A DNA stretch of 64,000 bases from the NCBI GenBank assembly GCA_017454675.1, contig JAFTCN010000053.1, positions 4,853 through 68,852 on the forward strand, given 5' to 3'. The notes beneath the pieces are model-generated. The model did no database searches, was not told where the DNA came from, and saw nothing but the letters and a program-made list of their open reading frames with translations. The DNA comes from Clostridia bacterium. Lineage in GTDB: Bacteria; Bacillota; Clostridia; Oscillospirales; CAG-272. Below, piece after piece: positions 4,903 to 25,719 of the stretch; positions within the stretch are counted from its first letter, which is position 1, and each line of letters starts with the position of its first letter. Made by a program: the position numbers and the translations under genes.

Positions 4903-7083
4903 ATGACAAATGCTCGCTACAGAGCAAAAAACCGTGCTCTGATCCTTCTGGCAGTCCTTATCGCGGTCATGCCGGTCACAGGATGCGTCGGAGGAGGCCC
5001 CGGCGGCGTCACGACGGCGGTCTCTCCTGACACGTCAGACTCCCCGGAAGATATCATATCCGATACCGGCAGTGTCACGTCCCTGTCTCCCGGGACATCG
5101 CTTGAGCCGGCCGTCACGACTTCCCCCGCCGCGACTACAGTCGAAGTCACGACCGACAGTCCCGACGCGCTCAGAGCCGGCAGCGACGTCATAGGATTCA
5201 TACCTTTTTCCGCCAGGGTAACCGACGGCGAATCGGTCTCTGTCAGGATAGACAGCGATACAGCCGTTATAAATCCGCTGAAGGCGGGCTCGGCGGTGAT
5301 CGAATTCCGCAATATATACGGAGAGACTGCCGGAGCAGATGTCACCGTCTCGACGGATCTCAAAGCGACTGCAGTCTATATCCCGTTCGACGCTCCCAAG
5401 GTCAGCTTCAACCTGGCCGATCTCGGGGTCAAACCCACCGCCAACGCCGATATAACGACGCAGCTCCAGGGCCTTGTCAACAAGGCGAGCGAAGCCGGAG
5501 GCGGAACCGTATACGTACCTTCGGGCAATTACAGGATAAGCTCTATCACGATGAAGCCGGGAGTCGATCTGAAGTTCGCCGGTTTCGTCCCCGACGCGAC
5601 CGTCGGATATACGACCGAGGTGAAGCGATATGTCAGCAGCGGAAAGCCTGCAGTCATAACCGCGGGATCCGCCCCGCGCAACAATATCTTCTTCTACAAC
5701 ACTCCCCTGCCTCAGGCATACTGCACCGACGGAATGTCCGACTTCTCGATATCCGGCGGTGTGTTCAACTGCCAGGCAAAGATGAAGCTGCTTGCCTTCG
5801 CATGCGGCAGCAACATCAGAGTATCTGATATGATCGTCAAGGATCTGCCGGACAACCACGCTCTCCAGATCGACGGCTGCACCGGCCTAACAGTAGACAA
5901 CGTCATGTTCGCGGGATACTATTATCCGGCGAACAACCCCGTTCTCACCCGCGAGACGATCCAGCTCGAGCCCACCACACCGGGATCGATCACCAGCGAC
6001 TACGCGGGTTCGCCGATCCTCGCGACCGCCGGCGACTATCACACAAACAGCGACATATCCGTCCTGAACTGCTATTTCGGCAAGAGCGACTTCTACGGCC
6101 CGCAGCTGGTGGCTGTCGGTCATCACAGCACGGCTGGCTCGATCTCATGCGACGGGTTCCGCTTCATAGGAAACGTCGTAGACAACCCGCTGTACTGCGG
6201 ACTGCACCTTCCCAATGTATCGAACGCCGAGATACGGGACAATACATTCATTTCGGCCGATAAACTGACATCCGGCCGTCTGGCGGACGACTCCGCTCTT
6301 ATCTCGCTCTACTCGTTCAACAGCGATACAAAACTCACCATAGACGGTAAAAATGTAGTATACGCCTTCTCGTATGAGCATTTCGGCGACCGGAACTACA
6401 TAATCGAGAACAACAGCTTCGTCCTGGGCGGCAAGACTTATCTGCGGGCTCTGTATTTCACCGGCGCTTCGGCCGACAACACCCAGAACGCAGCCTATGT
6501 GTCGTCGTCAGCCTACAGATACGAGACGTTCGGCGGAGAGCTGTTCCAGATAAAAGGCTACCTGATAAAGAACAACTGCTGCGCCGGCATCACCGTCAGA
6601 AACAATTCTATCGAATACACATCGGCGGCCTCGTACAAGGATTGTTTCTGCTATGCCAACAACGTCAACGGCTTTTTCTTCGAAAACAACGAGATTAAAC
6701 TTGCCGACGGAGTCAGTTTCTCCCGCAAATACGGCGACATCAAGGGTATCAGCACAAGCGGCACCGTATCGTCCGACAGGGCCGAGGTCGCCACGAGGCG
6801 GATAAATCTCATATCTACGACAGAGGTCCCGGTGACCGTTAACGCGGGCGGCACGAGCTTCACGCTGAAGAAGTCCGACGTAAACATGACTCTGACACTC
6901 ACGCCGACTGATGGCGGCAGGATCGTGCTCAACGCCGACAGAAGAGGAAACCTCACTGTCGACATAATACCCGACGAAGGATACGTTTTCTCTGGATTCA
7001 CCGACGAGAACGGGAACCCGGCCGACCTTGCGAACATCGTTTTCAAACGCAGCACCAGGATAGGAGCCGTATTTAAAAAGTGA
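4903..7083 (+). CDS. surface lipoprotein with right-handed beta-helix (pectate lyase-like) domain; putative polysaccharide-active enzyme
   Basis: Signal peptide with lipobox VTG-C; S/T/P-rich linker; GGGTVYVPSGNYRISSITMKPGVDL cap motif; repeated I-x-N-N beta-helix coils; C-terminal PDEGYVFSGF repeat-like module; ATG at 4903 after AGGTG. Confidence 0.7.
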   Translation: MTNARYRAKNRALILLAVLIAVMPVTGCVGGGPGGVTTAVSPDTSDSPEDIISDTGSVTSLSPGTSLEPAVTTSPAATTVEVTTDSPDALRAGSDVIGFIPFSARVTDGESVSVRIDSDTAVINPLKAGSAVIEFRNIYGETAGADVTVSTDLKATAVYIPFDAPKVSFNLADLGVKPTANADITTQLQGLVNKASEAGGGTVYVPSGNYRISSITMKPGVDLKFAGFVPDATVGYTTEVKRYVSSGKPAVITAGSAPRNNIFFYNTPLPQAYCTDGMSDFSISGGVFNCQAKMKLLAFACGSNIRVSDMIVKDLPDNHALQIDGCTGLTVDNVMFAGYYYPANNPVLTRETIQLEPTTPGSITSDYAGSPILATAGDYHTNSDISVLNCYFGKSDFYGPQLVAVGHHSTAGSISCDGFRFIGNVVDNPLYCGLHLPNVSNAEIRDNTFISADKLTSGRLADDSALISLYSFNSDTKLTIDGKNVVYAFSYEHFGDRNYIIENNSFVLGGKTYLRALYFTGASADNTQNAAYVSSSAYRYETFGGELFQIKGYLIKNNCCAGITVRNNSIEYTSAASYKDCFCYANNVNGFFFENNEIKLADGVSFSRKYGDIKGISTSGTVSSDRAEVATRRINLISTTEVPVTVNAGGTSFTLKKSDVNMTLTLTPTDGGRIVLNADRRGNLTVDIIPDEGYVFSGFTDENGNPADLANIVFKRSTRIGAVFKK

Positions 7084-11161: not shown

Positions 11162-11205
11162 ATGACAGCAAAAAACGGCCGATTTGGGCCGTTTTTTGCT
11201 GTCAT
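11162..11205. terminator. bidirectional intrinsic terminator
   Basis: Perfect 19-bp inverted repeat ATGACAGCAAAAAACGGCC-gatttg-GGCCGTTTTTTGCTGTCAT between convergent genes. Confidence 0.9.
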
Positions 11206-11213
11206 TCGGTCGA

Positions 11214-12194
11214 TCATCCGAACTTTACATGAGTGAGCGGCTCTCCGTCGGTGCCGACGATGTCAGTGTCATAAACGGTATTTCCTTCGCTGTCGGAAGT
11301 CCCGTAGAACTGACGCCTTCCCTCCGACATTGAGGAAAGATACCATATGCCCTGAGCCACCGTCGATCCGCTGACCTTTACCGCCGCCTGTTCGCCGTAG
11401 ATATCGACCTTCGCGCGGCTGTCGATCATAAGGACGCTCCCGCTCGATTCCGCATTCAGCAGTATCCCGTATTCGTATTCGCCGTCGGGATCGCTGACCG
11501 TTAGCTGCCCTCTTCCGGTTATCAGCATGCTTCCGCCGTAATGGAAGCCCCAAACCGTTATTGATCTCAGCGTGTTTTTCCCGACGAGCTTCAGCTTGAA
11601 ACCGTTGCCCATAAGGTTTACGTCGAGGTGTCCTCCGTCGACATTGTTGAGGGTAAGCGTGTTGGTGTCCCGGTCGTATGAGACTCCCTCGGGTACCGTG
11701 CCCTGTCTGTCTCCGGGATCACGCGAGGGGTTCATATAGACGACAGCATGTCCGTTCTCGCCGTCAAGCAGAATATATTCCTCGTCTACCGCGCCGTATT
11801 CCTCTACGGTCCCGTTCGGATCCTGGTTGTCAAGCTCCGGGAAAGCTCCGTCGGGATAGTCCCGGTCAGGGTCGAAATGATGGTCGTGCGGCTCTTCGAA
11901 AAAGATCGGACTTCCCTCTTCGCTGAAAAGATCGAAGCCCAGAAGATCGAAACCGAAAGACGAATAAACGAGATTTGCTACGACCGCAACGGCGACAAAG
12001 GCGGCAATACTGCTCCGTTTGAGCATACTGATGAATCCGCCTTTTTTCTTCTGTTTCTTTATTTCCCAGTGGTCGCCGTTCATCTCGTCCGTAGTTCTGA
12101 ATTCATCTGTCGGACGGATGTATTCGGGGGTCACGATGCCGCCGAATTCCTCGGGAACGCCGAACTCCGGGTCACGTTTGTACGTACTGCCCAA
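11214..12194 (-). CDS. single-pass membrane protein with extracellular beta-helix-like (Cthe_2159-like) domain
   Basis: TTG start after GAAAGGAGG; basic KKQKKK then a hydrophobic helix; GVSYDRDTNTLTLNNV, LKLVGKNTL, LITGRGQLTV beta-solenoid motifs. Confidence 0.6.
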   Translation of the reverse strand: MGSTYKRDPEFGVPEEFGGIVTPEYIRPTDEFRTTDEMNGDHWEIKKQKKKGGFISMLKRSSIAAFVAVAVVANLVYSSFGFDLLGFDLFSEEGSPIFFEEPHDHHFDPDRDYPDGAFPELDNQDPNGTVEEYGAVDEEYILLDGENGHAVVYMNPSRDPGDRQGTVPEGVSYDRDTNTLTLNNVDGGHLDVNLMGNGFKLKLVGKNTLRSITVWGFHYGGSMLITGRGQLTVSDPDGEYEYGILLNAESSGSVLMIDSRAKVDIYGEQAAVKVSGSTVAQGIWYLSSMSEGRRQFYGTSDSEGNTVYDTDIVGTDGEPLTHVKFG

Positions 12195-12251
12195 CGGTCT
12201 GCCTCCTTTCTCTTCTCTGTATATGACCGCAAAAACGAAAGAAGAACGGTA

Positions 12252-13142
12252 TCAGCCGATATTGTGAACGTCGAGCTGCGGGAAGGGGCATTCGACTCCG
12301 AGTTTGCGGAAGCCGAGAAGCAGGTCGTGATTGAGCACGCGTGAGCCTGAATAGATGTCTTTTTCGTCGACATCGACAACGAAGCGCAGCACGACGGAAC
12401 TGTCGGCAAGCGACTGTACTCCGAGATACCGCGGAGCGCTCTTGAAGATGTCTGTTCTCACAGCGTATATCTCCTCCATGAGCTGCGGGATCCCGGCCTC
12501 GAGGGCGGCAAGATCGGTCGCATAGGGGATCGCGATATCGCTGAGGCTGCGCGAGATCCTGTCGGATCTGTTGAGTATGTTCTTCATGTCAGAGTTGTTG
12601 ACGATCTTGACGTTGTCGCCGGTGTCTGTGATGCTGGTCGTGCGGATCCCGATATTGGTGACCGTTCCTCTGAATCCGTCGACTTCCACGATATCGCCCA
12701 CGTTATACTGGTTCTCGAAGAGCATGAAAGCTCCCGTCACAACGTCGCTGATGAGGCTCTCGGCGCTGAAACCGACGACAAGAGCTACGATCCCGACGCT
12801 CGCGACGATAGTCGAGACGTTGACTCCGATGATCGACAGGCCCCAGCAGATTATCACTATGATGGCGACGTACTTGAGCAGGCTCGAGATGATAGACAGG
12901 ATCGAGCGGGCTCTGTGATTGGTCGGCCTGGGGATCTGAAGGATCAGATAAAGGCCGGTCTGGATACCGATGACAAGGGCCGCCATGACGATGAGTTTGA
13001 GTATATTCGACAGGTTGATCGTCACATTCTGGAACGACTGGGCGCTGAATACGCTTGTTAGAAAGCCGACCGGGATCAGCACCGTGAGCAGACCTGCGCA
13101 CACGATCAGCCTGATCAGCATGTTTTTCCTGTTCTTGTTCAT
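12252..13142 (-). CDS. mscS: small-conductance mechanosensitive channel (MscS family)
   Basis: TM helices, GIVALVVGFSAESLISDVVTG, YNVGDIVEV, GTVTNIGIRTT, C-terminal PFPQLDVH. Confidence 0.9.
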   Translation of the reverse strand: MNKNRKNMLIRLIVCAGLLTVLIPVGFLTSVFSAQSFQNVTINLSNILKLIVMAALVIGIQTGLYLILQIPRPTNHRARSILSIISSLLKYVAIIVIICWGLSIIGVNVSTIVASVGIVALVVGFSAESLISDVVTGAFMLFENQYNVGDIVEVDGFRGTVTNIGIRTTSITDTGDNVKIVNNSDMKNILNRSDRISRSLSDIAIPYATDLAALEAGIPQLMEEIYAVRTDIFKSAPRYLGVQSLADSSVVLRFVVDVDEKDIYSGSRVLNHDLLLGFRKLGVECPFPQLDVHNIG

Positions 13143-13211
13143 TTTTCTCTCCGTGATATAAAAATTTTTATAATTCTCATCATGATCATGACGTCGGCGC
13201 CGGCTCCTGTG

Positions 13212-14393
13212 TCAGGGCCTGTATTCGCAGCCGTCGGAAGGGATGCAGGAGACCGAATCCCCGTCGAGATATACGAGTCCCGCCTCACCGTCCCCGCCGA
13301 ATTCCCGGCATCTGTCGGACATATAGAGCGGGAGAAGTCTGAGCAGAAGATCAGAGCAGCCGAGCCGGGTCGAAAAAGCCGTTGCAGGACCGGAGGCGTC
13401 GTGAGGCAGCAGATCAGAGACGCCGATATACCGGGAGACCACGGTGCCGTCTCTGTATGTGTAGCAGAAGTTCTCCTCGAATCCGTCGAGAGCGAACCGG
13501 CGCAGCGAGCAGAAGGCAACTCCGCCTCCGTATACGAGGCCTCCGGCGGATACCGTCTTTCCGTCCTTTTCGATATAGAACCCGGACACGTAACGCGTGT
13601 CCGACGAATCGAAATTGCGGGCAAAACCGTCCTTCGAGGCGATCGCGCCGTGTCTGTATCCGAGCGATACGAGACCGTCGGCAAGCAGGTCGACGATATA
13701 CGCGTTCTTCATCCAGCAGAAATCGACGAAAGCTTCGATCCCCCGCTCTTCCGCGAAGGCGAGATATTCGTCGCTGACACGGAGAACGACCTTGCCGTCG
13801 CCCCTGAACTCAAGGCTCACATGTTCGTCGGAGCGGACGAAGGGGATGAGAGCGTCGTAGAAGGAACGCATCTGCGTGTTTCTGGCAGGGTCCCAGGTAG
13901 CGGCGTCCTCGTCGTACGATGACGACCACAGGGTCTCATAATAGGCAAAAGCCGGAGCAAGAAAAATATTTCGCCCCGGATCGGATGCCGCTTTTTCAAG
14001 AGACGAGCAGAGTTCCGCGGGAAGTACGATCTCGGTGTTCGGAGAAGAATTCAGCGAAGCGAGATTTACGGTATCCGAAAAAGAAAGAGTCGGATGGAAA
14101 AGCCGGTAGTAATATGTGGTTTTTTCGGTATAAATGTTTCGAAGCGCTTTGTATTCGGCTGTGGAGGACATGCCAGACACTCCAAGCTCGTATGTGAATA
14201 CGAGCTCAGGTGCGCAACCGACAGCCCCGTCATGTGCCTCGACCGTCTTAACGCCCTTGCCGGTCGTGAGCAGACCGCCGATGCCGATCGCGATGCCCGA
14301 GGCCCCGACGGCCGCCAGCACTATGACCGCGATCAGCCGCAGGACCGTTTTTTTGTCCCGAAAAAGCTTTTTATCTTCTTTTTTATCTTCCAT
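13212..14393 (-). CDS. ApbE-like (FAD:protein FMN transferase fold) membrane-anchored protein, motif-degenerate
   Basis: N-terminal TM; NLASLN..P...EL..L segment, VDFCWMKNAYIVDLLADGL (in place of LDLGGIAKGY..D); overall ApbE-like layout. Confidence 0.55.
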   Translation of the reverse strand: MEDKKEDKKLFRDKKTVLRLIAVIVLAAVGASGIAIGIGGLLTTGKGVKTVEAHDGAVGCAPELVFTYELGVSGMSSTAEYKALRNIYTEKTTYYYRLFHPTLSFSDTVNLASLNSSPNTEIVLPAELCSSLEKAASDPGRNIFLAPAFAYYETLWSSSYDEDAATWDPARNTQMRSFYDALIPFVRSDEHVSLEFRGDGKVVLRVSDEYLAFAEERGIEAFVDFCWMKNAYIVDLLADGLVSLGYRHGAIASKDGFARNFDSSDTRYVSGFYIEKDGKTVSAGGLVYGGGVAFCSLRRFALDGFEENFCYTYRDGTVVSRYIGVSDLLPHDASGPATAFSTRLGCSDLLLRLLPLYMSDRCREFGGDGEAGLVYLDGDSVSCIPSDGCEYRP

Positions 14394-14425
14394 TTTAAAG
14401 CCTGCCCCCCTGTCTGACGCCGTCT

Positions 14426-14449
14426 GCGGAACGGGAGTACCCGTTCCGC
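14426..14449 (-). other. GC-rich intergenic stem-loop between oppF and the apbE-like gene (possible mRNA stabiliser)
   Basis: GCGGAACGGG-agta-CCCGTTCCGC, 10-bp perfect stem, no U tract. Confidence 0.5.
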
Positions 14450-14490
14450 GGATAGCGTGTCCGGTACGTCGGAGGCCCTTTACGGTATCG

Positions 14491-15819
14491 TCAGATGACC
14501 GCGAGGAGCAGCAGGATCAGGAAAATGACCAGCAGCGCTCCCCTGAACGCCAGGCCTATGAACGAGCCCTTGCGGCAGGATCTGCGGTTGCGCATATAAT
14601 TGTGCTTGCGGAAGACCGCGGCGGCGATGAGCCCGAGTATCGGGAAAAGGAAGGCAAGGACTCCGAGCCAGGCATTGCCGGTGTCGTGGAGAGGAGTGTC
14701 GAGGATCGGTTCGTTCGAAACGTTGTAATCCGCGTCATCCTTCTCCTTTTCCTGACCGTCGGCGGGAGCGTTGACGTCCTTGATAGTGACCGGCTTGAGC
14801 GGGATGCCCGCTTCGCGGATCTTCTTGTATTCCTCTATCTCGGAGAGACTTCCGAATACATAGTGATCGTGCCCGATCGGACGGAGCTCCGGAGTCTCGC
14901 TGCTGTAGTCATGTATCGAGGGATCATAGGTAAAGAGCACCTTGTTCTTCTCAAGCAGCGGATCGGGAATCGGTATGGCCGAGATTAGCGATCTCGTGTA
15001 GGGATGGAGCGGGAAATTGAAGAGTTCCTCGGACGACGCGACCTCGACGATGTCGCCCTTGTAAATGACGCCTATCCTGTCGGAGATGAATCTGACGATC
15101 GAAAGGTCGTGGGCGATGAAGAGGTAGGTGGTACCGCGTTCCTCCTGGAACTTCTTCATCAGATTGAGCACCTGTGCTCTGATCGAAATGTCGAGCGCGG
15201 AGATCGGCTCGTCGGCGATGACGAGCTCCGGCTCCATTACCATGGCTCTCGCAAGACCGATCCTCTGGCGCTGGCCGCCCGAAAACTCGTGTGGATAGCG
15301 CGTCAGGTGCTCGGGGAGCAGGCCGACCTCGTCGATGATCTTCTCGACCTTCGCGACTCTCTCGGCCTCGTTCTTGAAGAGATGGAAGTTGTATAGTCCT
15401 TCGGAGATGATGTAATCCACCGTCGCGCGCTCGTTGAGCGAGGCGGCGGGATCCTGGAAGACCATCTGGATGTTCCTGATGACTTCCCTGTCGACCGACT
15501 TCGGGATCTTTCCCGAGATCCGTACGCCCTTGTAGTCGATCTCGCCGGCGGCGCAGGGGTTGACTCTGATTACGGCTCTGCCTATCGTGGTCTTCCCGGA
15601 GCCCGACTCTCCGACGAGCGAGAAGGTCTCGCCCCTGTAGATGTCGAACGAGGCGTTCTTTACGGCCTTGACGGCCCTGTCGCCCTTTCCGAATGTGATG
15701 TCGACATTCTTCAGCGACAGAAGTATCTCGCGGCCGTTTTCGTCGAACGGACCGTTTGCGGGGAGATGTTTGGCTTTTGAAAGATCGGCGGCGCCGTTGT
15801 GATTAAGCTGTTCGTTCAT
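14491..15819 (-). CDS. oppF: oligopeptide ABC ATP-binding protein OppF with C-terminal two-helix membrane extension
   Basis: Walker [13 protein letters not shown], signature FSGGQRQR, Walker [20 protein letters not shown]; hydrophobic C-terminal tail. Confidence 0.9.
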
Positions 15820-15834
15820 AAAGCTGCCCCCCTG

Positions 15835-17634
15835 TCAGATATTGAAAGCTTCGATAAGCTTTTCATGGATGTTCCTGATCGCTTCGGGCTTTTCGATCTT
15901 CGGTGATCTGGGATCGAGCAGCCAGGTCTTGGCATAGTGGGTGTCGGTGATCCGGAACATCGGAGGATCGAGAAGAGTGTCGATCTTCAGGCAGTAGGGA
16001 TTTCTCGGAGCGAACGGGTCGCCAACGATAGTGTTGTAGAGGCTCGGAGGAGTACCGGTGATCGAATAGAGTTTGGTATTCCTCTTGGCAAGCTGCGGCA
16101 GCGACGAAAGCAGCGCCCAGGTGTAGGGATGACGCGGATCGAAGAAAATCTCGTTTACGTGTCCGACCTCGACGATCTGTCCGGCGTAAAGCACCGCGAC
16201 TCTGTCCGCTATGTTGGCCACGACTCCCAGATCGTGCGTGATGAATACGATGGTGTAGTTGAATTCTCTCTGAAGATCCTTGAGCAGCTTGAGTATCTGA
16301 GCCTGGATCGTGACGTCGAGAGCTGTGGTGGGCTCGTCGCAGATAAGGATCTTGGGCTGGCAGGACAGCGCGATGGCAATGACTATCCTCTGCCTCATTC
16401 CGCCGGAATACTGGAAGGGGTAATCGTCGAACCTCTTCTCCGCCTCGGGGATGCCGACCTTCTTCATAAGGATGAGAGCGCGCTCCCTGGCTTCGAATTC
16501 AGAGCACTTCTGGTGCTTCAGAATGACCGACGTGATCTGCTTTCCTATCGTGATGATGGGGTTGAGCGAGGTCATCGGGTCCTGGAAAACGGTGGCGATC
16601 TTCTTTCCTCTGATCTGGGTCCAGTCGGTCTGTTCCTTGATCTTGGCGAGGTTGAGGATGCATTCGCCGTGCAGCGTTTCTTCGGTCTCGTCGATGTACC
16701 TTACCCTGAATATTACCCTGTCGAACACCTTGTTGCGCTCGGACATATCGGACAGGTCGATGCCCGTCTTCATGGCCTCAGTGCAGCATTTTACGAGCCT
16801 GCGTCGCATGTTCGCACCGCGGAGGCCTCCGATGCGGCCGGTCGAGAGCAGTATCTCCTTCGCGAGGATGAGATTGCGCTCAGAGATGCTCTCGGGGACG
16901 GTGACATTCGCCATCTCGATGTATTTCTTACCGAGCTCGAGTCTTTTCTTCTCATACTCGGTGTTGTACGAAACGTCGCCGGCGGCCTTTGCCTTTTTCT
17001 CGGCAGCCTTTATCTTTTTCTGCGCCTCGATCTTCTTTATCTCTTCGGAGAACTTCGCGATCCTGGCGTCGGCCTCTTTAATGGCCTCTTTTTCTTTAGA
17101 GGAGTCGAGAGTGAGTTTGTGGTTGTAGACTTCGGTCTTCTGGAACAGCAGTTCCTTCAGCTGGACGTCGAACTCGGCGGATTCCTCGGGAGTGAGCTTC
17201 GCGCGGCTCTCCTTCTCTTTTTTGAGCCTGTCGAGCTCGACCCAGACCGGAGAGGCGAACTCACGGCCGTAGTTCCGGTCGAGTTCTTTTCGAATGGATT
17301 CGACGGTCTTGCGATGCTTCCTGCTGTTTGAGACGTTCGTCGTGACGAGTTCTTCGTCGTTGTAGATGATGTCGCCGCTGTCGATGAAACCGTTGCTGTC
17401 GAGCATCCCGGCGAAGGTCTTGGTGAAGACGGATTTGCCCGAGCCTGACTCGCCGACTATGGCGATCGACTCGTTCTCCATGACGTCGAGCGAGATGCCG
17501 CGTATAGCGGTCAGCACTCTGCCTCTGACGTGGAATTTGACTACAAGATCCCTGACCGAAAGGAGCACCTTCTCCTTTTTGTCAACAGTGTTTTCAGTGA
17601 CGGCGTTCATGCCTGCGTCTTTGTATTCAGCCAT
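15835..17634 (-). CDS. oppD: oligopeptide ABC ATP-binding protein OppD with large charged insertion
   Basis: GESGSGKS, FQDPMTSLNP, YPFQYSGGMRQR, ICDEPTTALD, PRHPYTWALL; ATG at 17634 after GAGGTG. Confidence 0.9.
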   Translation of the reverse strand: MAEYKDAGMNAVTENTVDKKEKVLLSVRDLVVKFHVRGRVLTAIRGISLDVMENESIAIVGESGSGKSVFTKTFAGMLDSNGFIDSGDIIYNDEELVTTNVSNSRKHRKTVESIRKELDRNYGREFASPVWVELDRLKKEKESRAKLTPEESAEFDVQLKELLFQKTEVYNHKLTLDSSKEKEAIKEADARIAKFSEEIKKIEAQKKIKAAEKKAKAAGDVSYNTEYEKKRLELGKKYIEMANVTVPESISERNLILAKEILLSTGRIGGLRGANMRRRLVKCCTEAMKTGIDLSDMSERNKVFDRVIFRVRYIDETEETLHGECILNLAKIKEQTDWTQIRGKKIATVFQDPMTSLNPIITIGKQITSVILKHQKCSEFEARERALILMKKVGIPEAEKRFDDYPFQYSGGMRQRIVIAIALSCQPKILICDEPTTALDVTIQAQILKLLKDLQREFNYTIVFITHDLGVVANIADRVAVLYAGQIVEVGHVNEIFFDPRHPYTWALLSSLPQLAKRNTKLYSITGTPPSLYNTIVGDPFAPRNPYCLKIDTLLDPPMFRITDTHYAKTWLLDPRSPKIEKPEAIRNIHEKLIEAFNI

Positions 17635-17642
17635 GCCGCACC

Positions 17643-18644
17643 TCACATATGTGTTCTCGGGTCGGAGGCGTCACCGAGGTTCTGTCCCACGACGTAGAGA
17701 ACTATCGTAATGATCGAAGCGATCGCGACCGGAGCCCAGAATTCGAGCTGCATACCGGGCGTGAACATAGAGGGCTGCGCGGTACCGATGAGTTTGCCGA
17801 GCGAAATATCGGACATCGTAAGTCCGATGTAGCTGAGGAATACTTCATATGAAATATATGAAGGGATCTCTGTGGCGGCGAGAGTTACGATGACCGACAC
17901 CATGAAGGGCAGTATGTTCTTCATGGCTATACGGAAGATCGATGTCCCGAGGCAGCGCGATGCCAGATTGTACTCACGGTCGCGGATTATTACGACCTGG
18001 GTCCTGATAAAATACGCGATGCCGAGCCAGCCGGTGACAGTCAGAGCGAAGACCAGCGACCAGAAACTGGCCGAGAGCAGCATGACTATGACCGAGATGA
18101 GGAGTATGTACGGCACATTGCCGATGATATTGTAGACCTCCTGCATGATGAGGTCGAACCGCTTGGAGAATCCCCAGACCGCGCCGAGCACGACGCCGAT
18201 GGCCATATTGATTATGGCACAGATGAAGGCGAGCGAAAGCGAGATCCGGGAACCGGTCCAGATGGCGTCAAACGTGGATTCGCCGACGCCGCCCGAGCCG
18301 AGTATCCAGTGGATCTTCGCGTCGTCCGGATGGAGCTCCATCGCCTTTTCGGGAGTGAGATGCTTTCCGCCCTCGGTCAGGACGCTCGAGAAGCGGTCGT
18401 AATTTGAGAACATGGGATAAATGTAGGCAAATACCACGATAACAGCAAGCAGGCCGAGTATAACGATATTGATCTTCTTTCTGAAGAAGACTCTGAACAC
18501 AGAATGCCAGTAGCTGTATCTGGGTGCCGTGATCTTTTCTGCCGCGAGTTTGTCGCTTTCGACTCTGCTGAAGAGTTCCTCTTCGGGAATTCCGAGAGAC
18601 GAGAGGTCCTGAAGTTTTTCAGTTTCGGTCGTATTTCCGTTCAT
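17643..18644 (-). CDS. oppC: oligopeptide ABC permease OppC (AmiD-like)
   Basis: YSYWHSVFRVF N-terminus, multiple TM helices, EAA loop REYNLASRCLG, GQNLGDASDPRTH. Confidence 0.9.
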   Translation of the reverse strand: MNGNTTETEKLQDLSSLGIPEEELFSRVESDKLAAEKITAPRYSYWHSVFRVFFRKKINIVILGLLAVIVVFAYIYPMFSNYDRFSSVLTEGGKHLTPEKAMELHPDDAKIHWILGSGGVGESTFDAIWTGSRISLSLAFICAIINMAIGVVLGAVWGFSKRFDLIMQEVYNIIGNVPYILLISVIVMLLSASFWSLVFALTVTGWLGIAYFIRTQVVIIRDREYNLASRCLGTSIFRIAMKNILPFMVSVIVTLAATEIPSYISYEVFLSYIGLTMSDISLGKLIGTAQPSMFTPGMQLEFWAPVAIASIITIVLYVVGQNLGDASDPRTHM

Positions 18645-18650
18645 TTCAGG

Positions 18651-20291
18651 TCACCTCGCTTTGCTTGTGAATGAGATACGCGGATCGACGGCTCCCATGA
18701 GAATGTCGCCGAGGATAAGCGAAACGATCGAGAGCAGCGAATAGAACAGTGTAAGTCCGACGATGACTCCGTTGTCGTTTGCGTTGATGGCGTTGGTCAG
18801 CAGGTTCCCCGTGCCGGGAACCAGGTACACACGCTCGGTGATGATGCCTCCGACGAGAGATCCGAGAACGCTGCCGGGAATGCCGTGTATGATCGGGATC
18901 GCGGCGTTTTTAAGGATATGCTTCGTGAAGATCTCACCTTCTGAAAGACCGCCCGACCTCGCGAACCTTACGTAATCGGAGTTCATCTGGTCTATCATGT
19001 ATCTGCGCAGCCATTTCATAAGTCCTGCGATCGACGGCAGAGACAGCGAAACGATCGGAAGGACATACATCTTCCAGCTCTCGTTGTTGACGTCGAGCGT
19101 GCTCGGCAGTCCGATGCTCCGCCCTATCGCCTGAAACATGAAGATATATGCCAGAGACGGCACGGCTATGATGAATATCACGTAGATAGTGCCGAGATTG
19201 TCGATCACCGTATCCTTTTTCTTTGCTATCAGTATCCCGAGCGGAACGCCGAGAAAATAAGATATGACGGTGGATATGATGCCTATGACGAACGAGAATC
19301 CTATCTTGGATTTGCTCGAGAGCCGGAGGTCGGTATTGGTGTAATCGTCGGTATAGCGTTCAATGGCGATCGGGTTCAGCTCCCTGGAGTTCTCCTGATA
19401 GGTGGCTGAGTGGAGGTCGTCGGCGCTGATCTCGGAGAAACCGGTCGGATAGTATGTGAACGCTTTGACCTGAGCGCCCTGCGAGACCGTCATAGTCTTG
19501 AAGACGTCGACGTCCTTGTTGACCGAATAGGAGGTACCCATACGGATGTTCAGGAGATTCTGATGGATGAACGGGAATCTGTTGTCGCAATAGACCAGAT
19601 ACTTGTGAAGAGTTCCGTTTCCGGTGATGGCGGGAGAGAATTTCACTTTCCCGTCGGGACCGGTATATGCAGGATCGTGAAGAGTAAACGAAAGCTTCCT
19701 CTCCCCGATATCAATTTCGGAGTTTACATAGTGGATGTTGTCCACCCAGAAGATGCGCGTGAAATATTTGAACATGCGGCTGATCAGAGGCACGTCTTTA
19801 TAGGCAAACAGTACCTGCTTGCCTCCGTTTGCCAGCTGCTGTGTTTTTGCCGAGTAGTAGTCGGCGTTAAGGCGCACGATCGTATATCCCTTCGACTGAT
19901 AGGCGTCAGCGAATTTACGGATGTATTCGGAAGCCTTCGGACTGTCGTCGGGAGCGAAGATATCGACAAATCTCTCTCCGTTTTTAACGGTCACCTTTGC
20001 TGTCGGAGCGATCTCGACGGCGGAAGCGCGTTCCTCCTCTGTGATCTCACCCGATCTTGTCAGCGACGCAAGGTAATCGTTGTATGTGACGTAATCGAGA
20101 TAGCCGTATTTTTCCCACTGTTCGTATTTGTAGGTCGTCCTGACGTTGCTGGATTTTTTGCTGAAAAGCGGGTCGCTGCCGAAGATCTTTTCTCTGTCTG
20201 TCAGCGAATATATCAGCAGCATGACGATGGCGACGACTATTATCACCGAGATCAGGCCGTGCAGCAGACGTCTTAGCAAATACTTTGTCAT
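18651..20291 (-). CDS. oppB: oligopeptide ABC permease OppB (AmiC-like, large extracellular domain)
   Basis: MTKYLLRRL, WLRRYMIDQMNSDYVRFARSGGLSE, ITERVY..PG.G, VDPRI. Confidence 0.9.
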   Translation of the reverse strand: MTKYLLRRLLHGLISVIIVVAIVMLLIYSLTDREKIFGSDPLFSKKSSNVRTTYKYEQWEKYGYLDYVTYNDYLASLTRSGEITEEERASAVEIAPTAKVTVKNGERFVDIFAPDDSPKASEYIRKFADAYQSKGYTIVRLNADYYSAKTQQLANGGKQVLFAYKDVPLISRMFKYFTRIFWVDNIHYVNSEIDIGERKLSFTLHDPAYTGPDGKVKFSPAITGNGTLHKYLVYCDNRFPFIHQNLLNIRMGTSYSVNKDVDVFKTMTVSQGAQVKAFTYYPTGFSEISADDLHSATYQENSRELNPIAIERYTDDYTNTDLRLSSKSKIGFSFVIGIISTVISYFLGVPLGILIAKKKDTVIDNLGTIYVIFIIAVPSLAYIFMFQAIGRSIGLPSTLDVNNESWKMYVLPIVSLSLPSIAGLMKWLRRYMIDQMNSDYVRFARSGGLSEGEIFTKHILKNAAIPIIHGIPGSVLGSLVGGIITERVYLVPGTGNLLTNAINANDNGVIVGLTLFYSLLSIVSLILGDILMGAVDPRISFTSKAR

Positions 20292-20314
20292 AATAAAAAT
20301 CTTCCCGAAAAATC

Positions 20315-20419
20315 ACACAGTAAGAGGACTCGGCGGAGACTACAGGTCTCACTCTTCATCCCCTTACTGTGTTGCATTATTTAATCAGTATGTTATTTCC
20401 CGGCAGGACCGGGAGATAA
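20315..20419 (-). other. structured intergenic region after oppA (stabilising or attenuating stem-loops)
   Basis: ACACAGTAAG (20315-20324) pairs with CTTACTGTGT (20363-20372) around an inner GAGAC/GTCTC hairpin; second hairpin TTATTTCCCGG-cagga-CCGGGAGATAA. Confidence 0.55.
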
Positions 20420-20428
20420 GCTCACCGA

Positions 20429-22597
20429 TCAATACAGACCGATGTTCTTGGCCATGCCGCCGGCCTGCGGAAGCATGGTGTCGAGGTAGGTCTGGGGATC
20501 GCCGAAGTCAGGGCCCCAGCCGCAGACGTCGACGATGTTGTAGTTCATGGTGTCACCGGTCTCCGGATAGTAGCCGGCGTTATACCAGTTGAGAGCGTTC
20601 GAACCGCCGGTCTTTACGAGAACGACCTCGACGAGTTTGCCGAGAGAGGTCTCGATCGACTGCTTGAGAGCGTTGGCTCTGGCGGTGTAGATCTCGTTGA
20701 TGTCATAGTACGGAATCTCAAGCTTTATCGGGGTCTTCTCGGTGACGGTGATGCCCTGCTCCGCAAGCTCTTCGACAGCCTTGGCCATGTAAGCCTTCGC
20801 GTTCTCGGCATTGTACCATCCGTCAAATCCGGCAGAGGAGCCTGCGCCCTCTTCCTTGGTGGGATCCCAGACCTTGATCTTGATGCCGTCGGCATCGATC
20901 TGGTCCTGCATGATCTGTCCGTAGTAGGTTCCGGCGGCGTAGGTCTTGTCGGTGCCGTTGATCTTTACGGTCGCGGCCTCGGGAAGAGATACGAAGTTGC
21001 CGGGAGTGTAGGAGTTAACGAGCGACGTGAGCTTGAGTTCGTCGCCGGTCGTCGTGGCGTTGTAGGCGCCGCGGTCGAGAGCGGTGCAGACGGCAAGCCT
21101 GAAGTTCTGGTTGCCCATCGCGATGTTGGTACGGTTCTTCTGGTTGTCAGAGAGAGTCGTCGGAGCGATCGTGGGATCGTCGTAGTTGCCGTACTGAGCG
21201 CGGTAGAGGTTGAGGAACATCGGGTAGGAAGTCGCATCGGTGGCGGAGACGTAGGCGTACTCGTCAAAGAGTCCGTCGGCCTTGCACTTCGCGAGAGCCT
21301 GGGTGTTGAGGCCGGCGCCGGCGAATTTGCCTTCCTTGAACTTGTCGTAGCCGAATGTCGGGTTGGAACCGTCGGAGAATGTCCAGGTGATCTTCTTGAG
21401 CGTGACGGCGTCCTTGGCGTAGAACTTGTCATTGAGCTCGAAGACGATGCTGTTCTTCTCGGTGGCGGAAGTTACGAGATAAGCGCCGCAGTAAGCGATA
21501 TCGTTCGGGGTCTTGCCGTAGGTGTAAGCGTCGCTCTTGGCCTTTTCGGCAAATTCGTCAACGCCGAACACACCGCCCTTGGCAGCAAACTGGACCTCGC
21601 TCAGAGGAGCGAAGATGTTGTAGCCGAACATGGTGAGGAAGTAGGTGCAGGGGGCCTCGAGAGTATACTCAAGAGTATAATCGTCAACAGCCTTTACGCC
21701 GACCTGCGAGAAGTCGGTGATCTCCTTGCTCATGTAGGCGTCGGCATTCTTGATGATGCCGCTGACGAGGTACTCAAGTCCGCCCTGGGCGTCGAGCATG
21801 TGGTGCATGGCGGCCACGAAGGACTTGGCGGTAACGGGCTCAAGAACTCTGCCCTGAGAGTCGACCCAGTCGACGCCCTGGCGGATCTTGAAGGTGTAGG
21901 TAAGACCGTCGGCGGAAACGGTGGGCATCTCGGCGGCGAGAGCGGGCTTCAGCTCATTCTCAACATCATACTCGAGAAGTCCGGTATAGGTGTTGATGAT
22001 GGCTTCGGAGTCAGCCGAACGGTAGGTGTTGAAGGCGTCCCAGGTCTGAGGGTCAGAGGTGTAGCCGTACTCGTAGGTATCCTGGAAGGTGTAGCCCTTT
22101 CCGGTGAGGTACTTCTTGGCTTCCTCATAGTAGGTGCCGGTGCCCTTCTTGGCGTTCCAGAGAGCTTTGAGTTCGTTTCTCTCGGCAGCCTTGATCGGCT
22201 TGTCGCCCGCAACGATCAGGAGCCTGTAGTATCTGTAGGAGTCATTGCCCCACAGAACAGGCGTCGCGGTATAGGGAGCGACTTTGGAGATGGCGTAGTT
22301 GCCGCCCTTGGAAGTGGACGGGAGCATAACGCCGGATTCGAGAAGCTTTGCCTCGGCGATGGCCATGAGGGCAAATCTTTCGGCAACGGTCTTGGCTTCC
22401 TTTGCAGCCTTGTAAGCGGTATCGAACTCGCCGAGAACCTTCTCGTAGATTTCGTCGGAGATCTCAGCATGGGTCTTTCCCGCGTAAGGATCGGAAACAA
22501 TACCGCCTGCCTTCTCGGGATCGCTGCAGGCCGCGAATGACGCCGCAAGCATCACAAGCACGAGAGCGACCGAGATCAGTTTCATGAGTTTCTTCAT
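20429..22597 (-). CDS. oppA: oligopeptide-binding lipoprotein (AmiA/AliA-like), apparently circularly permuted
   Basis: Lipobox FAA-C24; GLLEYD, PALA, VSADGLTYTFKIRQG, VGVKAVDDYTLEYTL, NQNFRLA, WGPDFGDPQTYLD; strongly biased codon usage. Confidence 0.9.
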   Translation of the reverse strand: MKKLMKLISVALVLVMLAASFAACSDPEKAGGIVSDPYAGKTHAEISDEIYEKVLGEFDTAYKAAKEAKTVAERFALMAIAEAKLLESGVMLPSTSKGGNYAISKVAPYTATPVLWGNDSYRYYRLLIVAGDKPIKAAERNELKALWNAKKGTGTYYEEAKKYLTGKGYTFQDTYEYGYTSDPQTWDAFNTYRSADSEAIINTYTGLLEYDVENELKPALAAEMPTVSADGLTYTFKIRQGVDWVDSQGRVLEPVTAKSFVAAMHHMLDAQGGLEYLVSGIIKNADAYMSKEITDFSQVGVKAVDDYTLEYTLEAPCTYFLTMFGYNIFAPLSEVQFAAKGGVFGVDEFAEKAKSDAYTYGKTPNDIAYCGAYLVTSATEKNSIVFELNDKFYAKDAVTLKKITWTFSDGSNPTFGYDKFKEGKFAGAGLNTQALAKCKADGLFDEYAYVSATDATSYPMFLNLYRAQYGNYDDPTIAPTTLSDNQKNRTNIAMGNQNFRLAVCTALDRGAYNATTTGDELKLTSLVNSYTPGNFVSLPEAATVKINGTDKTYAAGTYYGQIMQDQIDADGIKIKVWDPTKEEGAGSSAGFDGWYNAENAKAYMAKAVEELAEQGITVTEKTPIKLEIPYYDINEIYTARANALKQSIETSLGKLVEVVLVKTGGSNALNWYNAGYYPETGDTMNYNIVDVCGWGPDFGDPQTYLDTMLPQAGGMAKNIGLY

Positions 22598-22640
22598 GAT
22601 TGGGTTTATTCCTCCTGAGAATAATATTGGTTTTCGAAGT

Positions 22641-22669
22641 ATTATACCTCAAACGCAACAGAATGTCAA
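22641..22669 (-). promoter_or_regulatory. promoter of the opp operon
   Basis: Minus strand TTGACA (22669-22664), 17 bp, TATAAT (22646-22641): perfect consensus. Confidence 0.85.
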
Positions 22670-22875: not shown

Positions 22876-22904
22876 TTGACAAATAACCGGAAAAAGTATA
22901 TACT
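22876..22904 (+). promoter_or_regulatory. promoter of valS
   Basis: TTGACA (22876-22881), 17 bp, TATACT (22899-22904). Confidence 0.75.
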
Positions 22905-23043
22905 ATAATCAGAAAAAAATTTATAAACGAAGCCGCCGTGTGTTTCAGGGATCCTTCCCTAACCAGGAACATGCCGGAGCGGTCCGCAGGTGCGGATCCG
23001 TGACGGTCCGCACCGAAGACGCGCGGCTGCGAAAGGAACCCGT

Positions 23044-25719
23044 ATGAACGATTCAGCACACGAGCTGCCGAAGACCTACGACCCCGCGGGATTCGAAGAC
23101 CGCATTTACGCGATGTGGATGGAAAAGGGCTACTTCACGCCCGATCCCGCCGACACGAGACCTCCCTTCTGCGTCGTCATCCCGCCTCCCAACGTGACGG
23201 GACAGCTCCACATGGGCCACGCCCTCGACGAGACCCTTCAGGACATACTCGTAAGATACAAAAGAATGAAAGGTTTCGACACCCTCTGGGTGCCGGGGAC
23301 CGACCACGCCGGCATCGCCACCCAGATCAAGGTTGAAGAACGCCTGAGAGTCGAAGAGGGACTTTCACGCTTCGACCTGGGACGCGAGGAATTCCTCCGC
23401 AGAGTCTGGGACTGGAAGGCGAAATACGGCACGAGGATCATAAGCCAGCTCCAGAAGCTCGGATCGTCGTGCGACTTCACCAGAGAAGCCTTCACGATGT
23501 CCGACAGACTTTCCGCCGCCGTAAAAAAGGTATTCGTAAAGCTTTATAACGACGGCCTTATCTACAGAGGACTCCGCATAACAAACCTCTGCCCGCACTG
23601 CAACACCGTCATTTCCGACGCCGAGGTCGACTACCGCGAGATAGAAGGCGCCTTCTGGCATATCAGATATCCCGTCAAGGGAGAGCCCGGACATTATGTG
23701 ACCGTCGCGACGACGAGGCCCGAGACTATGCTCGGCGACACCGCCGTGGCCGTCGCTCCCGGGGACGCCCGCTTCTCGGATCTCGTCGGAAAGACGCTCA
23801 TACTCCCGCTCGTAGGGCGCGAGATACCCGTCATCGAGGACGAGAACGTCGATCCCGGATTCGGCACCGGCTGCGTCAAGATCACGCCCGCCCACGACCC
23901 GAACGACTATGAGACCGGGCTCCGCCACGGACTCGAGAACATCATCGTCATAGACAACACCGCACACATCAACGAGAACGGCGGAAAATACGCCGGCCTC
24001 GACAGATTTGAGGCGAGGAAGAAGATCGTCGCAGATCTCGAGGCGGAGGGACTGCTCGTCAAGGTCGAGAAGTGCATGCACAGCGTCGGCCACTGCTACA
24101 GATGCGGCACGGTCCTCGAACCCGTCGCGTCCCGTCAGTGGTTCGTGAAGATGAAGCCGCTCGCCGAACCGGCGATCGAGTGCGTGCGCCGCGGCGATAC
24201 CTCATTTATCCCGGAGAGATTCTCGAAGAACTACTTCAACTGGATGGAGAACATCAAGGACTGGTGCATCTCAAGGCAGCTCTGGTGGGGCCACCGCATT
24301 CCCGCTTACTACTGCGGACACTGCGGCGAGGTCACGGTCTCCGAAGACGACGTCACGGTCTGCCCGAAGTGCGGCGGACACGATATCAGACAGGACGACG
24401 ACGTGCTCGACACCTGGTTCTCCTCCGCTCTGTGGCCTTTCACGACGCTCGGATGGCCCGATTCCGATGCCGACCTGAAAAAATACTATCCCACTTCCGT
24501 CCTCGTCACCGGATACGACATCATAACCTTCTGGGTCTCGAAAATGATCTTCATGGGACTGAAGTTCATGGGCGAGAAGCCGTTCTCGCACGTCTTCATC
24601 CACGGTCTTGTCCGCGACGCCGAAGGCAGAAAAATGTCAAAATCGCTCGGCAACGGCATAGACCCGCTCGAGATCATCGACAAGTACGGCGCCGACGCCC
24701 TGCGCTTCGCGCTTGCCACCGGAAACAGCCCCGGAAACGACATGCGCTTCTCCAACGAGAAGATCGAAGCGGCGAGGAATTTCGCGAACAAGCTCTGGAA
24801 CGCGTCGAGATTCGTTCGAATGAACCTGAAGGGTGACGAGGAAGGTCTTCCCTCCCCCGGCGCGATGTCGGCCGAGGACAGATGGATACTCGACCGCTTC
24901 GAACGCCTGACCGCATCGGTGACGTCGAACCTCGACAGATACGAGATAGGCATAGCCCTGTCGTCGGTATACGATTTCACCTGGGACATCTTCTGCGACT
25001 GGTACATCGAACTGTCGAAATCAAGACTCACCGGCAGGACCGGCACCGAAGCCGACAGGGACGCCGCCGCGAGAGTGCTGCTCTTCGTGCTCCGCGGGAT
25101 CCTCAAGCTGCTGCATCCGTTCATGCCGTTCATCACCGAAGAGATCTACATGTCGCTGCCGAGGCCGGCTTCCGAGCCCGAGAGCATCATGATCTCCTCT
25201 TTCCCCGAATTCGACGAAAAGCTCCTCTTCCCTGAGGATTCCGGCGACATCGAGAGGATCATAGCCGTCATCAAGGCAGTCAGGGCCCGCAGAAAAGAGA
25301 TGAACGTGCCGGCGTCGAAGAAAACGCGCATGTTCATAAAGAGCACCTTCCCCTGCTTCGGACGCCGCTCGTATCCCTTCTTCGAGCGTCTGGCTTCGGT
25401 CTCCGAGGCGGCGGACGCCGGGAGTGCGGATGAGATCGGCGGGGACGGCTTCGTCCAGATCGTCACCGATTCGGCGACCGTTTTCCTCCCGCTCGACGAG
25501 CTCGTCGACACCGAAAAGGAAAAGGCAAGGCTCACGGCCGAGACCGAGCGTCTGAAGGGAGAGATCGCGAGGGCCGAGGCAAAGCTCGCGAATCCCGGAT
25601 TCACATCGAAAGCCCCCGAAAAAGTCGTCGAGAACGAACGCGGCAAGCTTCTCAGGCTCAAAGAAACATACGCCGCGTCACTGGACGCCCTGTCAAAACT
25701 CGGACACCCAAATCACTAA
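23044..25719 (+). CDS. valS: valine--tRNA ligase
   Basis: PPPNVTGQLHMGHA (HIGH), GTDHAGIATQ, ATTRPETMLGD, WCISRQLWWGH, KMSKS, C-terminal coiled coil; ATG at 23044 after GAAAGGA. Confidence 0.98.
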   Translation: MNDSAHELPKTYDPAGFEDRIYAMWMEKGYFTPDPADTRPPFCVVIPPPNVTGQLHMGHALDETLQDILVRYKRMKGFDTLWVPGTDHAGIATQIKVEERLRVEEGLSRFDLGREEFLRRVWDWKAKYGTRIISQLQKLGSSCDFTREAFTMSDRLSAAVKKVFVKLYNDGLIYRGLRITNLCPHCNTVISDAEVDYREIEGAFWHIRYPVKGEPGHYVTVATTRPETMLGDTAVAVAPGDARFSDLVGKTLILPLVGREIPVIEDENVDPGFGTGCVKITPAHDPNDYETGLRHGLENIIVIDNTAHINENGGKYAGLDRFEARKKIVADLEAEGLLVKVEKCMHSVGHCYRCGTVLEPVASRQWFVKMKPLAEPAIECVRRGDTSFIPERFSKNYFNWMENIKDWCISRQLWWGHRIPAYYCGHCGEVTVSEDDVTVCPKCGGHDIRQDDDVLDTWFSSALWPFTTLGWPDSDADLKKYYPTSVLVTGYDIITFWVSKMIFMGLKFMGEKPFSHVFIHGLVRDAEGRKMSKSLGNGIDPLEIIDKYGADALRFALATGNSPGNDMRFSNEKIEAARNFANKLWNASRFVRMNLKGDEEGLPSPGAMSAEDRWILDRFERLTASVTSNLDRYEIGIALSSVYDFTWDIFCDWYIELSKSRLTGRTGTEADRDAAARVLLFVLRGILKLLHPFMPFITEEIYMSLPRPASEPESIMISSFPEFDEKLLFPEDSGDIERIIAVIKAVRARRKEMNVPASKKTRMFIKSTFPCFGRRSYPFFERLASVSEAADAGSADEIGGDGFVQIVTDSATVFLPLDELVDTEKEKARLTAETERLKGEIARAEAKLANPGFTSKAPEKVVENERGKLLRLKETYAASLDALSKLGHPNH

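Follow-up and report, generated by a model that had tools for sequence, protein, structure and literature searches.

A conserved six-gene Opp/Ami-class importer cassette of Clostridia with a circularly permuted receptor and a predicted ApbE-fold outer-face protein

Peptide uptake plays a central part in nitrogen nutrition, and the oligopeptide permeases (Opp) also carry peptide signals in Gram-positive bacteria. Here we describe an opp locus in a 64,000-nucleotide stretch of the genome of a Clostridia bacterium (assembly GCA_017454675.1, contig JAFTCN010000053.1), below called the window, and compare it with the two closest described ATP-binding cassette (ABC) systems. The first is the Ami permease of Streptococcus pneumoniae, comprising the AmiA/AliA-D receptors, AmiC, AmiD, AmiE and AmiF; its receptors are the closest solved relatives of OppA from the window. 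The locus differs from Ami in that the receptor is circularly permuted, OppD has an insertion of about 255 amino acids and OppF a membrane tail, and in the presence of a sixth gene with a predicted ApbE fold, none being named for Ami in the accessible part of PMC11192437.

The second system is the Opp importer of the Mollicutes (MMSYN1_0165 to MMSYN1_0169), which the accessible part of PMC10127287 lists as the importer of oligopeptides in the JCVI minimal cell. Among NCBIfam models, the equivalogs of this system (NF043077, NF043078, NF043079, NF043080 and NF043081 were tested) are the best for all five Opp proteins of the window, each scoring below its cut-off: 706.6 against 740 for OppD, 315.8 against 370 for OppC (NF043080), 193.8 against 350 for OppB, 440.5 against 800 for OppF, and 93.9 against 650 for OppA. 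OppD of one Mollicutes genome is 45% identical to the window protein over window residues 28–590, that is, through the insertion. Two Mollicutes loci, translated with genetic code 4, have the gene order oppB-C-D-F-A and an OppB of about 405 amino acids; their OppF has an insertion of its own, about 335 amino acids long, and no membrane tail, and the core of their OppA starts about 40 residues after the N-terminus, so that there is no relocated segment. At one Mollicutes locus (L102, G511:C1:826000-845900), at least two opp sets are situated within 20 kb, with three above-cut-off OppD matches in about 18 kb.

The conserved unit in the window consists of six genes, oppA, oppB, oppC, oppD, oppF and gene 6. 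They are listed below together with two internal features; here and throughout, the numbering is that of window positions, and all genes of the row are on the minus strand.

20429–22597, minus strand: oppA, 722 amino acids, SBP_bac_5
18651–20291, minus strand: oppB, 546 amino acids, BPD_transp_1
17643–18644, minus strand: oppC, 333 amino acids, OppC_N and BPD_transp_1
15835–17646, minus strand: oppD, 603 amino acids, ABC_tran and oligo_HPY
16624–17391, minus strand: OppD insertion, residues 86–341, all-helical, between the strands after Walker A and the Q-loop
14491–15819, minus strand: oppF, 442 amino acids, ABC_tran and oligo_HPY
14494–14682, minus strand: OppF C-terminal tail with an HDTG motif, hydrophobic helix 1, a basic loop with a conserved Cys, and hydrophobic helix 2 (hydropathy scan)
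13212–14393, minus strand: gene 6, 393 amino acids, N-terminal membrane anchor and predicted outward-facing ApbE-fold domain

The unit was delineated by comparison of related loci. At least 537 of 600 candidate stretches encode OppD relatives, which makes the cassette architecture widespread in gut and rumen Clostridia, and the best 80 of these (63–72% OppD identity) were compared; since they were picked via OppD, the presence of the OppD insertion in them follows from the sampling. The 80 loci come from metagenome-assembled genomes or isolates titled Clostridia, Oscillospiraceae, Lachnospiraceae, Roseburia, Acetatifactor, Faecousia and Fusicatenibacter, and one carrier of the cassette is a cultured Fusicatenibacter strain (L033). 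In 72 of them oppA-B-C-D-F and gene 6 are colinear on one strand, and in the other eight the contig ends inside oppF or at most about 0.7 kb beyond it. Gene 6 is thus directly downstream of oppF, on the same strand, in all 72 assessable loci. The sizes of the parts are conserved as well. As regards other conserved neighbours, an ORF family downstream of gene 6 is common to at most six of 60 loci, and one upstream of oppA to at most five of 48.

The composition is that of an Opp/Dpp-type importer: a family-5 solute-binding protein (SBP), two BPD_transp_1 permeases, the second of them with OppC_N, and two oligo_HPY ATPases. The genome (2.2 Mb, 94.87% complete) contains two oligo_HPY matches, both coming from OppD and OppF described here, hence this is the sole Opp-type system found in it. 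In our judgement, the locus is likely to be the only detected Opp/Ami-class peptide importer of the genome, with gene 6 as a frequent but dispensable outer-face accessory. Some of its parts are already known, namely the OppD insertion and the large OppB-type ectodomain. No description of the permuted OppA, the OppF membrane tail, the gene 6 family or any Opp-linked ApbE-like protein, or the six-gene cassette was found in the literature searched, which lay outside subscription journals and supplements.

The oppA gene encodes the receptor. It starts with a lipoprotein-type signal ending in Cys, as read from the sequence, and SBP_bac_5 covers residues 215–712 (119.5 bits, cut-off 32.4). The closest solved relatives, with E 1e-57 to 1e-61, are AmiA, AliB, AliC and AliD; the match that comes after them has E 9e-24. 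Residues 174–710 align with residues 15–499 of S. pneumoniae AmiA, and residues 50–162 with AmiA 519–631 (independent E-value 0.03; 0.0022 against AliB). The N-terminal segment thus corresponds to the C-terminal part of AmiA and the remainder to its N-terminal part, which makes this a circular permutation: OppA is an AmiA/AliB-type lipoprotein peptide receptor with the C-terminal 110 residues or so relocated to the N-terminus. The N-terminal segment has no credible Pfam match at E ≤ 10. The canonical order of the segments is seen in four ORFs from three other genomes of the same phylum, and among 401 genomes searched from the phylum, G000 and G330 alone give an end-to-end match to a 221-residue probe spanning the new junction.

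Because of the likeness of OppA to AmiA and AliB-D, the substrate is probably oligopeptides. Since SBP_bac_5-type systems in NCBIfam include nickel, opine-metal, glutathione and microcin carriers, one may consider a non-peptide substrate (oligosaccharides, metals or opines), as with some SBP_bac_5 systems, and a new ligand could lie behind the permutation of the receptor and the added parts. We regard this as improbable, given that the four closest solved relatives are all oligopeptide receptors, that no second Opp-type system was found in the genome, and that the related Mollicutes system carries the oligopeptide annotation mentioned above.

The oppB gene encodes a permease in which BPD_transp_1 matches residues 348–540 only (111.7 bits). 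An extracytoplasmic domain of about 300 amino acids (residues ~30–335) is situated between transmembrane helices 1 and 2 (TM1 and TM2); this trait was absent from the list of altered parts in the original prediction, an earlier reading of the same DNA. Complete homologues are 522–548 amino acids long, and the outer domain matches no Pfam family at E ≤ 10. Pneumococcal AmiC, 498 amino acids long, has a large outer domain at the same place, between TM1 and TM2, the likeness being by position only; ECD1/ECD2 are at residues 31–278, and a published AlphaFold model predicts that these domains clamp the receptor (PMC11192437, accessible part). A large permease ectodomain is thus already known from AmiC. 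The motif FSPAIxGNGTxHKY at OppB residues 218–231 (19599–19640, minus strand) is invariant or nearly so in 63 sequences. It was considered as a flavinylation site and rejected, as it does not fit D-x-x-[S/T]-G-A-[S/T]. In one locus (L100, G649:C25) OppB reaches 670 amino acids. The second permease, OppC, matches BPD_transp_1 (72 bits) and OppC_N (34.5 bits).

The oppD gene encodes an ATPase, whose oligo_HPY score is 50.1 bits (cut-off 27.1). Residues 28–84 align with residues 4–60 of Mycobacterium tuberculosis OppD, and residues 342–572 with 83–315. The stretch inserted between these two parts is 253–258 amino acids long in all 81 sequences compared. The AlphaFold2 model of the insertion has a predicted local distance difference test (pLDDT) score of 93.0 and features eight helices, the longest of 38 residues. 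A Foldseek search of the PDB yields no match with E ≤ 0.001, the best rows being generic coiled coils (E 0.41, TM-score below 0.3), and Pfam has nothing credible at E ≤ 10. The insertion is, at that, already catalogued: NF043079, the model of Mollicutes OppD, matches the window protein over model positions 1–557 of 561, and the insertion is common to Mollicutes OppD. As it is shared with the importer of the minimal Mollicutes cell, knowledge of its role would inform minimal-cell biology too.

The second ATPase, OppF, scores 31.0 bits with oligo_HPY (cut-off 27.1) and ends in a membrane tail. Among 73 tails, 72 parse as helix-loop-helix, and in 70 of these 72 the net charge of the loop is between +4 and +8; the 40 residues preceding the tail are acidic, with a mean net charge of -4.6. 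Given the basic loop and the positive-inside rule, we infer that the loop faces the cytoplasm, so that the first helix would dip into the membrane and only the second would span it. The tail has no Pfam family at E ≤ 10. A likeness to two-helix membrane domains with a basic loop was considered and dropped, Pfam providing no support for it. Among the sequences listed, the loop reads FKxxxYxRNxKACxKG with the Cys conserved, a conservation far above the need of a plain anchor.

Gene 6 matches no Pfam family, even at E 10, and no NCBIfam family; structure prediction identifies its product as a membrane-anchored outer-face protein of the ApbE fold. The AlphaFold2 model, built from an alignment of 73 homologues, has pLDDT 94.2 and a predicted TM-score (pTM) of 0.89, and all 39 PDB matches found by Foldseek with E ≤ 0.001 are ApbE/Ftp/FmnB chains, the best having E 2e-9 and a target-normalised TM-score of 0.67. 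The identity to these chains is 10–16%. In profile comparisons the likeness is fainter: the gene 6 profile matches ApbE TM1553 with E 0.01, hhalign gives a probability of 35% against the canonical ApbE encoded elsewhere in the same genome (211 bits), and ApbE first appears at row 28 (score 0.86) in the protein atlas. An N-terminal hydrophobic helix is present in 72 of 72 copies. The family is compact, with about 1,000 clusters at 50% identity: out of 1.84 billion, 1,151 representatives match at E ≤ 0.001, and the number falls to 1,021 at E ≤ 1e-10 and to 764 at E ≤ 1e-30. The source name, where given, is "hypothetical protein".

The described proteins closest to gene 6 are the FAD:protein FMN transferases ApbE, Ftp and FmnB (PF02424; FAD, flavin adenine dinucleotide; FMN, flavin mononucleotide), which have the same fold, outer-face location and membrane anchor, and share some pocket motif positions. 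According to the accessible part of PMC12052999, the catalytic residues of ApbE are Ser241, His257 and Asp285 (Vibrio cholerae numbering), the target motif is D-x-x-[S/T]-G-A-[S/T], and pockets of the family bind FAD as well as adenosine mono-, di- and triphosphate (AMP, ADP and ATP). In gene 6, two weak alignments place G304 at the ApbE Ser and S320/R321 at His-His, and these columns are variable over the 73 sequences. The residue opposite Asp285 is D348 in the window protein and E in the consensus, within a weakly aligned 5-bit stretch. It is therefore likely, if not certain, that gene 6 has lost the catalytic Ser and His of ApbE, and it probably lacks transferase activity. A scan of the eight proteins of the locus found the flavinylation target motif in none of them. 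Finally, gene 6 stands in an ABC importer operon, whereas the ApbE family stands beside redox proteins.

An alternative is that the gene 6 product works in the manner of ApbE/Ftp, as an enzyme or a carrier of ligands, acting on extracellular FAD or nucleotides with different catalytic residues and perhaps feeding the importer. The fold is intact (pLDDT 94), the positions of the ApbE motifs D..KG and GG(D/N) are invariant or nearly so, an acidic residue is opposite the ApbE Asp in the weak alignment, and the ligands of ApbE-family pockets listed above would suit such a role. Yet the absence of a Pfam match, the unconserved Ser and His positions, the lack of a substrate motif in the operon and the canonical ApbE elsewhere in the genome make this alternative quite improbable.

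The alterations that the original prediction had read from the locus fared well at the level of single proteins. The permuted OppA is borne out by the alignment of two swapped segments with AmiA and AliB, the large insertion in OppD (about 255 amino acids) by the alignment with M. tuberculosis OppD, and the membrane tail of OppF by its two C-terminal hydrophobic helices. For the degenerate ApbE, the fold is predicted and the catalytic Ser and His are not conserved in the weak alignments; there is no evidence of flavin coupling. The OppD insertion does not qualify as an undescribed alteration, since it is present in NF043079.

The distribution of the traits across lineages is as follows.

Window and 80 related loci: OppD insertion, permuted OppA, OppF tail, and an adjacent gene 6
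Mollicutes-type genomes (46 by score, two loci read): OppD insertion; no permuted OppA; no OppF tail, an OppF insertion of about 335 amino acids of their own; gene 6 in none of 46
G564: OppD insertion and permuted OppA; no OppF tail; gene 6, adjacent
G649: OppD insertion and permuted OppA; no OppF tail; gene 6, 1.7 kb after oppF
G656: OppD insertion (OppD of 693 amino acids); no OppF tail; gene 6, 10 kb away on the other strand
G330: OppD insertion, permuted OppA and OppF tail; gene 6 without a match in the genome

Here the Mollicutes-type genomes are the 46 with OppD above the NF043079 cut-off among 299 scored genomes of the Bacilli-type phylum; in-frame TGA codons in these 46 point to Mollicutes-like organisms. 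Gene 6 is found in four of the 299 genomes (G458, G564, G649 and G656), all four with insertion-type OppD. Within the genus of the window it is further present in five of the 36 other genomes, whereas none of the 24 genomes searched in other families of this order has it, and in the 401-genome sample of the phylum a strong match is seen in G000 only. The cassette copies within the genus are as divergent as those of other families (e.g. 32–34% identity for gene 6). In one case (L101, G656:C27), only the post-insertion part of the 693-residue OppD aligns with OppD of the window.

Thus, there is a broad OppD-insertion clade, and inside it a non-Mollicutes group with permuted OppA, gene 6 and the OppF tail being frequent, independently variable additions. 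The co-occurrence of the four traits over homologous loci, proposed earlier as a check, is observed in the related Clostridia loci, with the six genes colinear in 72 of 80, while the traits are separable in the Mollicutes, G564, G649, G656 and G330. Likewise, the suggestion that the changes had co-evolved is right insofar as the remodelled Opp parts and gene 6 travel as one cassette, and wrong insofar as the traits are not all-or-none. A pairing of the OppF tail with gene 6 as the cause of both traits was also considered, and is weakened by the fact that each occurs without the other. What is gained in practice is modest yet concrete, namely a delimited unit of six genes, a matrix of traits over lineages and, in G330, a natural case without gene 6.

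The same distribution bears on whether gene 6 belongs to the transporter at all. Its product might work on its own at the outer face, as a binding protein or an enzyme, with nothing but the operon in common with Opp: G330 has the same remodelled importer and no gene 6, and the gene is detached from opp in G656 and lies 1.7 kb from oppF in G649. If so, one would not expect gene 6 directly downstream of oppF on the same strand in 72 of 72 assessable loci while all other neighbours vary, nor its restriction, among the 299 Bacilli-type genomes, to the four with insertion-type OppD, nor its absence from the 24 genomes of other families of the order. We consider the independence of gene 6 unlikely, even though the complex prediction described next is weak, and conclude that gene 6 is probably tied to the transporter functionally.

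The complex of OppB and gene 6 was predicted from paired alignments with 63 rows each, in the same order. Of 80 solved complexes, 58 reached the mark set for a complex, as did two of 110 mismatched pairs; only seven of the 80 reached it with a score of at most 0.60, as did both passing mismatches. OppB with gene 6 scored 0.54 (0.61, 0.54 and 0.53 in the three runs), the best of three controls being at 0.16; the contacts agree between the runs by at least 56%, and the partner pLDDT is at least 78. The verdict is weak support, no interface having been obtained. A direct binding of gene 6 to OppB is, on this modelling, a tentative assignment, with the odds somewhat against it. Both this estimate and that of the functional tie take the complex prediction together with the synteny.

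We propose that gene 6 would act as a non-enzymatic accessory on the outer face of the transporter, where it would dock on the ectodomain of OppB, on the permuted OppA or on both, and that it may be dispensable in some lineages. In its fullest form, which we put forward as possible though somewhat less probable still than the OppB contact, the proposal is a six-component type I importer of gut Clostridia, in which the ApbE-fold pseudoenzyme is a true outer subunit that sits on the OppB ectodomain and handles the permuted receptor, the helical domain of OppD and the OppF module remodelling the inner face. We know of no solved ABC importer with an added non-receptor outer subunit; if the proposal is true, the cassette represents such an architecture.

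Several observations weigh against this proposal. The OppB–gene 6 score is in the weak band and comes with no interface, and OppA is an equally possible partner of gene 6. The residues of gene 6 at the ApbE nucleotide-pocket motifs (D224, K229, S253, D255 and G256) are conserved, and hence a ligand-binding or catalytic role is possible. The substrate is called from relatives alone, and SBP_bac_5 proteins bind many classes of ligands. In G656, gene 6 is 10 kb from the opp genes and on the opposite strand. In G330, listed as 100% complete and searched except for 2,070 bases, gene 6 has no match at E ≤ 1, and oppF is followed by a convergent gene; the other parts are there, with a permuted OppA of 755, OppB of 527, OppD of 588 and OppF of 433 amino acids. 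Finally, RNA-library contigs (four runs from three studies, at least 95% likeness, with DNA carry-over possible) cover parts of all eight genes of the row, with several bins uncovered, and one of them bridges the oppD/oppF overlap. Among the contigs listed, none bridges the junctions oppF–gene 6, gene 6–mscS and mscS–gene 8, the last two genes being those that follow gene 6 in the window, so that the extent of the operon is not fixed by these contigs. Loose contig ends at about 14367–14390 belong to relatives whose sequence diverges where gene 6 begins.

The remaining features of the row are as follows.

22641–22669, minus strand: sigma-70-type promoter TTGACA-17-TATAAT, 12 of 12 consensus positions, 44 nt 5' of the oppA start codon
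20308–20372, minus strand: hairpin with a 15-bp stem, then a U-run (AUUUUU), in the oppA–oppB spacer (20292–20428), a possible internal (partial) terminator
12252–13142, minus strand: mscS-type channel gene, 296 amino acids, MS_channel_1st and MS_channel_2nd
11214–12194, minus strand: gene 8, 326 amino acids, membrane-anchored, without known family
11164–11203, both strands: bidirectional intrinsic terminator, perfect palindrome of 17 bp around a 6-nt loop, with an A-run at one flank and a T-run at the other

In the window, eight co-oriented ORFs follow head to tail from 22597 to 11214 on the minus strand. The original prediction had taken all of them for one co-evolved unit forming a larger membrane complex, which may take up something other than plain peptides or link import to the binding of flavin or the control of turgor. 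The reading of the row itself was accurate: a single perfect promoter and a bidirectional terminator (the palindrome at 11164–11203) bracket the eight genes, and no terminator was called in the last three spacers, through gene 8. The mscS gene follows gene 6 also in G409, a near-identical genome (97–98% identity, mscS 98%) whose contig ends there, and gene 6 does have the predicted fold of flavin transferases. The conservation of the unit, however, stops at gene 6, as mscS and gene 8 follow it in none of the 80 loci, and G409 is the only genome where mscS does. In G412, of the same genus, the cassette has other neighbours, whereas mscS (61%) and gene 8 (47%) are on another contig. Hence the eight-gene unit is largely refuted by the lack of synteny, and the coupling to turgor control, which relied solely on the non-syntenic mscS, is not supported. 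The coupling to flavin is not upheld either, given the apparent loss of the catalytic Ser and His and the absence of a flavinylation motif from the eight proteins, and the traits occur apart in other lineages. Taken as a whole, the eight-gene explanation is hardly credible, and we return to the six-gene cassette as the unit, with mscS and gene 8 inferred to be passengers.

The mscS product matches MS_channel_1st (27.3 bits) and MS_channel_2nd (49.5 bits). Gene 8 has no family in Pfam (E ≤ 10) or NCBIfam, and its atlas clusters are "hypothetical"; the sole lead is an atlas row with score 0.84 to clusters of Cthe_2159, so that the beta-helix protein suggested earlier for this gene is not confirmed. 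In G412 (G412:C185:2789-4491), mscS and gene 8 stand next to each other in the same orientation, forming a small conserved pair. As no terminator was called between gene 6 and these genes, transcription from the opp promoter may run on into them. Alternatively, they may have a promoter of their own; the promoter scan called none there. In the spacer between gene 6 and mscS (13143–13211, minus strand), an AT-rich stretch containing GAATTATAAAAATTTTTATATCAC immediately precedes the ribosome-binding site of mscS; the GC content of the genome is about 57%.

A perfect promoter match with a 16–18 nt spacer is expected about 0.005 times per 13 kb on two strands at equal base frequencies. Promoter-like sites overall are not enriched (seven, as compared to 6.4 ± 2.9 in shuffles). 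The terminator is placed between the convergent stops at 11148 and 11214 and is common to the opp row and a convergent FAD_binding_2 gene.

The oppA–oppB spacer, folded as 156 nt, has an energy of -59.1 kcal/mol (z -5.44), none of 200 shuffles being as stable. The hairpin could be a partial terminator that yields an excess of the receptor over the translocator, an arrangement reported for cellulolytic Clostridia in the accessible part of PMC9045158. By a crude rule devised for this analysis, a hairpin with a T-rich tail follows oppA in 17 of 65 related loci, and on these grounds an internal terminator after oppA was rejected as a general feature; the same rule finds such structures in 13 of 72 oppF–gene 6 spacers.

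The row is flanked by housekeeping genes, the divergent valyl-tRNA synthetase gene upstream and the convergent gene of the FAD_binding_2 protein downstream. A divergent promoter with 11 of 12 consensus positions (TTGACA-17-TATACT; 22876–22904, plus strand) faces the valyl-tRNA synthetase gene at 22990–25719. GC content is 52–56% over 12001–22000 and 57–62% in most of the remaining window. The lower GC content of the cassette and its patchy distribution in the genus are compatible with horizontal acquisition. Elsewhere in the window, genes for a carboxylase (HMGL-like and PYC_OADA) and the beta subunit of a Na+-transporting oxaloacetate decarboxylase are situated at 26821–29596 (minus strand), and a 739-residue protein with a pectate-lyase-like beta-helix domain is encoded at 4864–7083 (plus strand).

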